64,000 bases of DNA from Promethearchaeota archaeon (GCA_016840165.1 JAEOSU010000080.1:1-64000), one strand, 5' to 3'. Counted from the stretch's first letter, positions 13,896 to 16,482 are shown. Notes: generated by a model from the sequence alone, not told the origin. Numbers and translations: made by a program.

Positions 13896-14105
13896 GGGCC
13901 ATTAGCTCAGATATCTACGAGAGTTTATCTCGTTAACTAAAATGGTTAACAAGGTTTAATAGAAGCTTGGTCAACAAGCGCAGGTCTTATAAATGACACA
14001 CAGACATACAAAAGCAAGCAATTGTCTGTATTTAGTAAAAACCTGAGATCCGGGGTTCAAAATGATTAATCATAACCATTATTCATGAAATTCCCCGATG
14101 GCCCA
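13896..14105 (+). tRNA. tRNA-Ile(UAU) interrupted by four BHB-type introns (about 13913-13942, 13949-13975, 13993-14040, 14062-14091)
   Basis: Acceptor GGGCCAT/ATGGCCC+A; anticodon arm CAGGT-CT-TAT-AA-ACCTG; 5-nt variable loop; T arm CGGGG-TTCAAAT-CCCCG; spliced product is 75 nt. Confidence 0.85.
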
Positions 14106-14930: not shown

Positions 14931-16307
14931 TCATTTTTTGCGTATTTGAGAATAAGCTTTTTCAAGACGCTCAATTGCTAATAGTATATCTTTAGATTGA
15001 GCTCCAATTGCCGCATTCATTACAATATAGGGTTGACTATAATCTTCACAGCAGGTACCAAATGCTTTCTCTCTTGAATTATATACTCGTGGCCCAGTAA
15101 CTCTCAAATTATACAGAGCACCTCCTAATGCAGTTAATTGTTCTTTTTTTAAATTATTTAATGACATCGCTACTGCTACCGGATTAAATATTTTTAGGAT
15201 CCTTTCATCAAGTTTTTGTGCAAGAGTTTGGAGTTTCTCTTCAAGTAATTTACGATTTTGTTGCTGCTCTAACAACATTCTTTCATAGCCTTTAACTCCT
15301 AAAGATAACATAGAGATGAGAAAATTCACTATAGGTGTTGCAGAAGCTCTGCCAGCGTATGCTTGACTTATTTGTGTAATAATTTCTTCCCTTGGTGAGG
15401 CAATTACCGCTCCCCCTATTGGAGTAAGTATGTTTTTATCAGTTGATTGAATTACAGCATCTACACGGCCAGCATCTATACCTGCACGTATCAATTTCAT
15501 CCATTCTGGACTTTGAACACCATATGCGTTAATTACAATATGGACCAAATTCTTATCTTTTGCAAATTTACTTATCTCTTTAATATCATCATGCTCTCGA
15601 GGTGGGAAAAAACTTGTGACGGACAGCACAGCAAAACAATCATCATCATAATTTTTTATAATATCCTCAATTGGAATCCTTACAGCATCATCAAAAATTT
15701 TTCCCTTAATAATTTTAGAGCGAATTCCCATCAAATCTAAAGCTTTCAAGAGTGATTTATGATCTACTTGAGGTACTAAAACTTTCCTTTTTCGCAGAAA
15801 TTTCTCCTCATTCCAATCTGGCTTAAGAGCGCCTAAACATAATGCTAAGGACATCCCAGTACAGAGTGGAATGACTATTGCTTTTTGAATATTGGGCAAA
15901 CCGAACTTTCTAAGAAAATCTCTGGCTAAATAATTAGAAATTTCATACATAATTGACCCACCTGGAGCTTTTGGCTGAGGTGCGGTTAAGAATCCACTTC
16001 TACCCACACCATGACAGAATCCTGAGGAAGTAAGCAGATGCAGTCGAGAAGCAATTCTAGCCTCTCTTTCTCCCACCCTTGATGCTTTATCATCTTTATC
16101 AGTATCCATATTTGAGAGAGTTTGTAAGAAAAAGTTTATTTGTTCCTCACTCCAAGGATCAATAGGCATGCTCTTTTGTTCGAATAAGATTCGCATCGGA
16201 TTAAGAAAGTTATTTAAAACCAAGTTGCCTCGATTAAGCATATTCTGAGGGATGGAAGTGTTTTCAAAATATCTAATAATGTTATCAAAATCAACCAAAA
16301 ATATCAC
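14931..16307 (-). CDS. spcS: O-phosphoseryl-tRNA(Sec) selenium transferase (SepSecS)
   Basis: GEREARI, HGVGRSG, PQPKAPG, CTGMSL, DHKS, NAYGVQS, GRVDAVIQSTDKN (PLP lysine); true start may be the TTG at 16298. Confidence 0.97.
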   Translation of the reverse strand: MIFLVDFDNIIRYFENTSIPQNMLNRGNLVLNNFLNPMRILFEQKSMPIDPWSEEQINFFLQTLSNMDTDKDDKASRVGEREARIASRLHLLTSSGFCHGVGRSGFLTAPQPKAPGGSIMYEISNYLARDFLRKFGLPNIQKAIVIPLCTGMSLALCLGALKPDWNEEKFLRKRKVLVPQVDHKSLLKALDLMGIRSKIIKGKIFDDAVRIPIEDIIKNYDDDCFAVLSVTSFFPPREHDDIKEISKFAKDKNLVHIVINAYGVQSPEWMKLIRAGIDAGRVDAVIQSTDKNILTPIGGAVIASPREEIITQISQAYAGRASATPIVNFLISMLSLGVKGYERMLLEQQQNRKLLEEKLQTLAQKLDERILKIFNPVAVAMSLNNLKKEQLTALGGALYNLRVTGPRVYNSREKAFGTCCEDYSQPYIVMNAAIGAQSKDILLAIERLEKAYSQIRKK

Positions 16308-16329: not shown

Positions 16330-16482
16330 TGGCGGCCCTCGAGGAGAGTTTCGAAAGTTAGGAAAATCCTAGCTATTATCGAACTCCTATCCCTCCGCAG
16401 GATAACTAGGTTTGAAGCCTAGCGTCAGAGACCACTTATCGTAAAAAACCGATGAGGTTTTTAATTCCGACCGTCAAGGGCC
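16330..16482 (-). tRNA. selC: tRNA-Sec(UCA), 9/4 fold, two introns (D arm 16436-16465; T loop 16348-16377), genome-encoded CCA
   Basis: 9-bp acceptor GGCCCTTGA/TCGAGGGCC, G73+CCA, anticodon loop CT-TCA-AA, long variable arm, 4-bp T stem GGAG/CTCC, 7-bp D stem after splicing; both introns have good BHB motifs. Confidence 0.93.

Follow-up and report, generated by a model that had tools for sequence, protein, structure and literature searches.

A four-times interrupted tRNA-Ile(UAU) gene as the probable AUA decoder of a TiaS-less Loki-type Asgard archaeon

Introduction

Our results suggest that a Loki-type Asgard archaeon reads the codon AUA with a tRNA-Ile whose anticodon is UAU. The gene for this tRNA lies on the + strand of the window (by which we mean the whole stretch of 64,000 nucleotides that was analysed), and its product would be the sole AUA decoder of the organism, replacing both tRNA-Ile2(CAU) and the enzyme TiaS; on the genomic evidence we give this reading a probability of roughly 0.87. 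An earlier note on this DNA had proposed, as its main inference, that this lineage may decode AUA with a UAU tRNA and may do without TiaS, and at the genomic level this proposal is now well supported.

How AUA can be read without AUG being misread is a classic question about the genetic code. The known solutions differ between the domains of life: lysidine in bacteria, agmatidine in archaea, and inosine or pseudouridine in eukaryotes. In the case described here, one of the commonest codons of a whole Asgard order without TiaS would be served by a UAU tRNA, and UAU decoding in this group would be a data point on the origin of eukaryotic AUA decoding. Moreover, since the standard tRNA finders miss the gene, automated annotation of these genomes will wrongly report AUA as a codon without a decoder.

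Results

The tRNA-Ile(UAU) gene has five exons

The stretch originally flagged (13981-14045, + strand) corresponds to the anticodon arm only: CAGGT-CTTATAA, a 48-nt intron and then ACCTG. To delimit the complete gene we combined a structure scan of the whole assembly (acceptor helix plus T arm plus anticodon arm, with introns allowed in the loops), the orthologues, and ARAGORN on the spliced product. The resulting layout is as follows.

13896-14105, + strand: complete tRNA-Ile(UAU) gene, 210 nt, five exons and four intervening sequences
13896-13910, + strand: exon 1, with the acceptor 5' strand, U8, A9, the D-stem 5' strand GCTC, A14 and G15; near-identical or identical in same-genus orthologues
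13911-13940, + strand: intervening sequence 1, about 30 nt, in the D loop; placed by homology, junctions uncertain by 1-2 nt
13941-13948, + strand: exon 2, the remainder of the D loop, AATGGTTA, with G18 and G19; compared with the uninterrupted D loops of orthologues
13949-13975, + strand: intervening sequence 2, 27 nt, between positions 21 and 22; from the BHB scan (x=13948, y=13976, H=4, h'=4)
13976-13992, + strand: exon 3, with the D-stem 3' strand AAGC, G26, the anticodon-stem 5' strand CAGGT and the loop CTTATAA; supported by conservation of the 15-mer GCGCAGGTCTTATAA
13988-13990, + strand: anticodon TAT (U34 A35 U36); T34 in every match of the 15-mer, and called by ARAGORN on the spliced product
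13993-14040, + strand: intervening sequence 3, 48 nt, in the anticodon loop, register 38/39 being equivalent to 37/38; from the BHB scan
14041-14061, + strand: exon 4, with the anticodon-stem 3' strand ACCTG, the variable loop AGATC, the T-stem 5' strand CGGGG and T-loop positions 54-59, TTCAAA; from orthologues and the BHB scan
14062-14091, + strand: intervening sequence 4, 30 nt, in the T loop between positions 59 and 60; from the BHB scan (score 11, H=4, h'=3, h=5)
14092-14105, + strand: exon 5, with U60, the T-stem 3' strand CCCCG, the acceptor 3' strand ATGGCCC and A73; from orthologues

The acceptor stem, GGGCCAT/ATGGCCC, is 7 bp long and the discriminator A73 stands at 14105, so that the GGGCC acceptor with A73 described earlier is present in the complete gene. 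The structure scan gave a T arm of CGGGG/CCCCG, split by 30 nt. Note that the gene has no encoded CCA; TCTTTT follows directly after A73.

The junctions in the D region depend on comparison with orthologues. The 3' junction of exon 1 was inferred from orthologues without the first D-loop insertion (L013, L016, L024); this insertion is missing in G010, G016, G024 and others and found in G007, G009, G017, G005 and G014. Exon 2 agrees with the unbroken D loops of two other genomes, in which the whole D region reads GCTT-AGCCTGGTTA-AAGC (G024, L024) and GCTC-AGTTTGGTCA-AAGC (G258, L100). Intervening sequence 2 is also missing in both. Because these two orthologues have no D-region insertion at all, the window gene can be said to carry two of them. 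The D stem of the window tRNA has a C13.A22 mismatch; since this becomes a U13-A22 pair in orthologues (G024, G011, G002, G008), the assignment of AAGC as the D-stem 3' strand is supported. An alternative model of the D arm, with TTGGTCAAC as the D loop, was ruled out by intron-free orthologues reading AG..TGGTYA and then AAGC. As for intervening sequence 4, it is missing in most same-genus genomes, where the T loop is TTCAAAT or TTCAAGT.

One feature of the D-arm intron deserves a separate remark. At 13963-13979 this 27-nt intron terminates in AAGC-TTGGTCAAC and is followed by the exon sequence AAGC, an arrangement that resembles a second copy of the D loop and D-stem strand and that is present in most orthologues too. 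This suggests that the intron came from, or holds, a local duplication.

In the raw DNA of the locus no tRNA was reported by ARAGORN, nor by Rfam (RF00005, at the gathering threshold and at E<=10). Both are blind to the unspliced gene because the four intervening sequences interrupt it. In-silico splicing changed the outcome: with the anticodon intron removed and the D-region and T-loop junctions varied, 4576 distinct trial combinations produced 1724 ARAGORN calls, 1723 of which were tRNA-Ile(tat). The homology-guided product of 75 nt was likewise folded by ARAGORN into a cloverleaf and called tRNA-Ile(tat), and it contains the acceptor stem, a D arm with G18/G19, an anticodon arm with U33, a T arm and the discriminator.

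Other interrupted tRNA genes were observed nearby and elsewhere in the genome. The - strand of the window encodes a tRNA-Sec (16334-16482) with a long variable arm, the anticodon loop CTTCAAA and a 30-nt intron in the T loop. It immediately precedes a SepSecS gene (14931-16307, - strand; PF05889, E=8e-111), and the pair is located about 0.8-2.2 kb from the tRNA-Ile(UAU) gene. Outside the window, a tRNA-Lys(UUU) (G000:C64:25402-25506) has an acceptor stem identical to that of tRNA-Ile(UAU), GGGCCAT/ATGGCCC, but G73, and it also carries a 31-nt T-loop intron. The tRNA-Ile(GAU) of the genome (G000:C63:165021-165137, outside the window) has a large insertion in the D arm and is miscalled by ARAGORN as tRNA-Ala(agc).

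TiaS is absent from the sampled genomes of the order

The window's genome is a metagenome assembly of 105 contigs, 99.71% complete with an estimated contamination of 6.3%. TiaS was not found in it by PF08489 (FLD), PF22641 (TCKD) or NF040849 (the full-length NCBIfam model), and all three profiles were positive in the four reference archaea that served as controls. A tblastn search of the genome with an Asgard TiaS (L001:1075-2400, a confirmed TiaS) gave no match better than E=1.5, and the TilS-specific domain PF09179 was not found in the genome either. Moreover, PF08489 was detected in 0 of the 41 sampled genomes of the order, three of which are single-contig. The suspicion that this lineage may lack tiaS is thereby borne out, by three profiles and tblastn in the genome itself and by PF08489 in the order.

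Among the phylum genomes that are at least 80% complete, 115 of 201 contain PF08489, and the distribution splits cleanly by family. The domain was seen in 0/45 genomes of f1, 0/4 of f2, 0/4 of f5, 0/14 of f14, 0/3 of f15, 0/2 of f18 and 0/2 of f22; elsewhere in the phylum the family counts are 21/24, 44/48, 12/12, 6/6 and so on, with f7 among the TiaS-positive families. Note that five of the families without TiaS in their sampled genomes (f5, f14, f15, f18 and f22) lie outside the window's order. This pattern implies either several losses of TiaS or a single loss in a larger clade.

CAU tRNAs in the window's genome and in closed genomes

The only CAU tRNA that we located in the window's genome is the initiator (G000:C49:11031-11168). 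Neither the elongator tRNA-Met nor a third CAU tRNA was located there by a T-arm-anchored scan, a relaxed scan with introns in the V region, anticodon-arm lists (which were too noisy), acceptor-pair lists, orphan T-arm modules, or fuzzy matches to the Met genes of two closed genomes (G066 and G038). Since the essential elongator tRNA-Met also escaped, a hidden and heavily interrupted tRNA(CAU) is possible by the scan alone. Our claim that Ile2(CAU) is probably missing from this genome rests on the absence of TiaS, not on the count of genes.

Two closed genomes illustrate the two situations. In G038, which belongs to the sister family, we saw the UAU tRNA and, as CAU tRNAs, no more than the initiator and a single elongator-type gene. 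Its elongator-type gene (L121:7130-7312, G038:C1, - strand) has the T loop TCCAAAT, with TCC and not TTC, and introns in both the anticodon loop and the T loop; it reaches only E=0.1 with Infernal and is missed by ARAGORN. The odd T loop and the two introns show why such genes escape the scans. Infernal gave 42 tRNA hits in the TiaS-positive genome G066; two of them are CAU genes and none is a UAU gene. The first of these, GGCTCGG..., matches the elongator-type gene of the sister family. The second reads GGGGCAT-TAGCTCAG... and has A73, the T loop TTCAAAT and a 47-nt intron in the anticodon loop. It resembles the window tRNA and is its best pairwise match among the spliced tRNAs, with 75% identity. 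This gene is plausibly the Ile2(CAU) counterpart. The pairwise identities (61-75%) are too flat to decide whether the UAU tRNA originated from Ile2(CAU) or from Ile(GAU). We also observed that all three G066 tRNA genes for which the sequence was printed (within L141-L164) encode the 3' CCA, which the window tRNA-Ile(UAU) does not.

These data bear on the best-surviving alternative, in which AUA is read mainly by a hidden tRNA(CAU) whose C34 is modified by an enzyme other than TiaS or TilS, the UAU tRNA being minor or supplementary. The incompleteness of the CAU census, from which even the elongator tRNA-Met is missing, would allow for it, as would the low yield of standard tools, which recover just 23-27 tRNAs from a genome that is 99.7% complete. 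Against it, five tests gave no TiaS or TilS signal, the UAU gene is kept, mostly as a single copy, in more than 100 genomes, and in the closed genome G038, which has the UAU tRNA, no CAU gene was seen beyond the initiator and the one elongator-type tRNA. In addition, the published archaea without TiaS carry UAU in place of Ile2 (PMC8450103). We consider a hidden decoder of this kind very unlikely, and a UAU tRNA acting alone remains our preferred reading.

AUA is frequent and aligns as isoleucine

In 1409 long ORFs, ATA accounts for 30.5% of the Ile codons; its frequency is 31 per 1000 codons, versus 21 for ATG, in line with the remark in the earlier note that ATA codons are frequent. We examined which residues stand opposite these codons in 57 tblastn alignments with other Asgard proteins, mostly from TiaS-positive families. 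Opposite ATA the residues were I in 42%, V in 20%, L in 13% and M in 4% of cases. For ATT the corresponding profile was 37/22/13/4, and ATC was alike; ATG differed, with M in 34%. Because ATA aligns as ATT and ATC do, and unlike ATG, AUA can be taken to mean isoleucine.

The same alignments address a second alternative, namely that the tRNA decodes AUG as well as AUA, or receives Met, with the result that the AUR box is ambiguous or reassigned. Wobble to G is within reach of a U34 that is unmodified or carries an xm5 modification (discussed in PMC8879553). Nevertheless, the residues facing ATA (Ile, Val and Leu) are the ones that face ATT and ATC, while ATG faces Met, and both A73 and the GGGCC-type acceptor stem are Ile-like; we consider an ambiguous or reassigned box very unlikely. 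As indirect signs of charging with isoleucine, the tRNA has A73, A37 and an acceptor stem of the GGGCC type, which other archaeal Ile tRNAs share.

The exons are conserved and the introns come and go

By similarity search the gene was found in 17 of the 24 same-genus genomes, with the loop CTTATAA in every extracted copy. On a wider scale, the exact 15-mer GCGCAGGTCTTATAA (also written GCGCAGGTCTYATAA), which covers G26, the anticodon stem and the loop, occurs in 102 of the 151 genomes of the order, and the reversed-pattern control gave 0 matches in every genome. All matches fall in the window's family, where they cover 101 of the 131 other genomes and 11 of the 13 genera, mostly as a single copy. 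Position 34 is always T in these matches and never C.

The rest of the gene varies in an informative way. Acceptor stems differ among genera (GGGCCAT, GGTCCAT, GGTCCAG, GGTCCAC and GCTCCCG), always with an exactly complementary 3' strand and A73, and so do the T stems (CGGGG, GGGGG and GTGGG, each with its complement). The presence of introns in the D loop, D arm, variable loop and T loop varies from genome to genome, and the exons are unaffected. The anticodon-loop intron measured 45-51 nt in every same-genus orthologue in which it was measured, and was seen by eye in other genera and in the sister family.

In that sister family (f2), which includes single-contig genomes of 4.4 and 6.04 Mb, an orthologous tRNA-Ile(UAU) was found in G038, G228 and G025, with an intron of 49 nt in the closed genome G038. 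Read by hand, the introns of G038 and G228 have a canonical BHB at 37/38. The arm GCGCTGGTCTTATA[A/T] occurs in 5 of the 14 genomes of this family.

Surveys of the phylum with short patterns (a 16-mer with 2 mismatches, and a 13-mer) did no better than their reversed controls outside the window's own family, and the sampled hits from outside it were all coding sequence or otherwise not tRNA-like. The suggested comparison of UAU with tiaS across Asgard genomes was answered in part: the order lacks TiaS and UAU occurs in the family and in its sister family, but elsewhere the short patterns are at the level of chance. One ARAGORN call of tRNA-Ile(tat), in the 1.4-Mb genome G041 (L081:1-140; G041:C1:634661-634800, - strand), proved by hand to be a tRNA-Thr(GGU); it has U73, and its variable region is interrupted by a hairpin intron, CTTATA...TATAAG. 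The Infernal hits of this genome contain not one CAU tRNA of any kind, so its census is uninformative, and the miscall is a warning about automated UAU calls in intron-rich archaea.

Could the locus be a decaying pseudogene or an unspliceable relic, from which no functional tRNA is made because of its four insertions, including one that lacks a clean BHB? The raw DNA does score nothing in Rfam or ARAGORN, and the first D-loop insertion has no canonical BHB. On the other side, the exons are kept and the stems compensate across at least 11 genera while the introns vary, and AUA is used 31 times per 1000 codons in a genome with no other decoder or TiaS found. Multi-intron tRNA genes are, besides, the rule in the window's genome and have been described for other Asgard lineages (bioRxiv 10.64898/2026.10.13.758758; PMC11291895). 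A relic is accordingly hard to credit. Conserved exons, compensating stem changes and variable introns are, at the level of sequence comparison, the mark of a gene selected for its mature fold.

Intron motifs and assignment of the anticodon

As BHB criterion we used a helix of 4 bp with two 3-nt bulges on opposite strands, the cut falling after the second nucleotide of the bulge. The T-loop intron (14062-14091) is a strict hBHBh', with the helix TTCA:TGAA, the bulges AAA and ATT, an inner helix of 3 bp and the T stem as outer helix. The D-arm intron (13949-13975) has a full BHB core, in which the 4-bp helix TGGT:GTCA includes two G-U pairs, the 3-nt bulges are TAA and ACA, and the inner helix is CAAG/CTTG. 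The anticodon intron is a relaxed BHB. Its helix pairs TTAT (13987-90) with GTAA (14035-38), next to the bulge AAA (3 nt) and an inner helix of 3 bp, and its 3' side is a 1x2 internal loop; in the 38/39 register there is no proper outer helix, and a 7-bp hairpin, ACAGACA/TGTCTGT, lies inside the intron. For the first D-loop insertion (about 13911-13940) the BHB scan found no canonical BHB at the junctions inferred from homology. The only strict BHB close to it (13908/13938) was rejected, as it would give a D loop without A14. This insertion is the weakest point of the gene model.

BHB geometry sets the cuts in the anticodon loop after 13992 and before 14041, which gives TAT, and a cut at 37/38 gives the identical loop, CTTATAA. 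The earlier note had read CT-TAT-AA at either placement of the intron, and had stated that other junctions yield only TAA; both statements hold, since by hand reading and by the structure scanner the two stem strands admit no more than two loops of 7 nt, CTTATAA (TAT) and CTTAAAA (TAA). The latter would make a tRNA-Leu(UAA), and although a cut at or before position 35 would produce it and the structure scanner lists it too, this has next to no chance of being correct: the cut would put the central BHB helix within the anticodon stem, the variable loop of 5 nt misfits a Leu tRNA (as had been argued) when the Leu tRNAs of the same genome have 14-15 nt between anticodon and T stems, a separate tRNA-Leu(TAA) exists at G000:C4:21510-21657, and the sister-family orthologues, read by hand, have a canonical 37/38 BHB giving UAU. 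At the level of DNA, BHB geometry and all orthologues give the anticodon TAT.

Discussion

A proposed route of AUA decoding

In the mechanism that we propose, the precursor would be transcribed with its four intervening sequences, and the archaeal splicing endonuclease and ligase would excise the introns at BHB motifs, of the strict type in the T loop and of the relaxed type at the other sites. The predicted product is a tRNA of 75 nt with anticodon UAU, A37 and A73, which IleRS would charge with Ile. U34 would then pair with the A of AUA, and some modification of U34 or some structural feature presumably prevents the reading of AUG. In this way the UAU tRNA would stand in for the usual archaeal tRNA-Ile2(CAU) and its agmatidine synthetase TiaS, both of which we take to be missing from the order.

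All UAU genes seen in the two families have an anticodon-loop intron with a 3' part that pairs with U33-U36, whereas all other introns come and go. To our knowledge, eukaryotic tRNA-Ile(UAU) genes always bear an intron. That intron is needed for the formation of pseudouridine 34/36. By analogy, the archaeal intron might be retained for a modification of U34 and/or U36 at the precursor stage (e.g. pseudouridylation) that blocks the reading of AUG, an idea that we regard as speculative and rather unlikely. If it were true, the eukaryotic way of reading AUA, with a UAU tRNA, an obligatory intron and an intron-dependent modification of the anticodon, would have an Asgard counterpart or root.

Comparison with known systems

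The likeness to eukaryotes is partial. As in the eukaryotic cytosolic tRNA-Ile(UAU), which has a pseudouridine-A-pseudouridine anticodon, the genomic anticodon is TAT and AUA would be read without a modified cytidine (PMC3575796), and an anticodon-loop intron is present in every orthologue seen here. Unlike in eukaryotes, the partner tRNA-Ile (G000:C63:165021-165137) is GAU and not AAU/IAU: eukaryote-type AUA decoding includes an A34 (inosine) partner, and here the partner gene reads GAT. The term 'eukaryote-like' used in the earlier note therefore fits the UAU anticodon and the ever-present intron and does not extend to the partner tRNA. Because most other sampled Asgard families keep TiaS, inheritance of the UAU trait by eukaryotes is not implied.

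The canonical archaeal system of tRNA-Ile2(CAU), agmatidine and TiaS performs the same task, and the CAU tRNA of G066 that we compare with it is similar to the window tRNA in acceptor stem, D arm, A73 and anticodon-loop intron. The differences are that the window tRNA encodes T34 and that its genome was found to be without TiaS. The tRNA-Ile(UAU) of Mycoplasma mobile, a bacterium without TilS, is a parallel in which the cytidine-modifying enzyme was also lost and a UAU tRNA is used instead; it differs in being bacterial and in having been examined as a case of AUA decoding without wobble modification (PMC3575796).

In its architecture the gene is like the multi-intron tRNAs of Thermoproteales and of the Asgard groups Atabeyarchaeia and Freyarchaeia, which have BHB-type introns at non-canonical sites (D arm, T loop 59/60) and are missed by standard tools (PMC11291895; bioRxiv 10.64898/2026.10.13.758758). 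Atabeyarchaeia and Freyarchaeia are a different lineage from the Loki-type one of the window, and these papers on interrupted Asgard tRNA genes make no mention of Ile, UAU or TiaS. In a full-text literature search, no paper paired TiaS with a Lokiarchae- term, and the paper that combines agmatidine with Asgard contains no such report. Within the searchable literature, clade-wide UAU decoding in Asgard archaea is unreported.

The closest relatives of the system are the tRNA-Ile(UAU) ('tRNA-Ile3') genes of Nanoarchaeum equitans and Korarchaeum cryptofilum. Archaea without tiaS are known to carry a tDNA-Ile with TAT (Taniguchi et al. 2013, PMC3575796). As stated in the earlier note, UAU is known from few archaea, and the published surveys name only these two species: tRNA-UAU was found in no others among 167 archaeal genomes, the Korarchaeum gene having an intron (PMC6000648), and in the tRNAscan-SE 2.0 paper, which covers 217 archaea, these two species are again the ones listed (PMC8450103). 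Like in our case, UAU there replaces tRNA-Ile2(CAU), TiaS is lacking and the Korarchaeum gene is intron-bearing (PMC6000648, PMC8450103, PMC3575796). Unlike in those two isolated species, the trait is seen here across a whole Asgard order that is rich in species (more than 100 genomes), in a large AT-rich genome in which AUA is a major codon and the gene for its probable decoder carries four intervening sequences.
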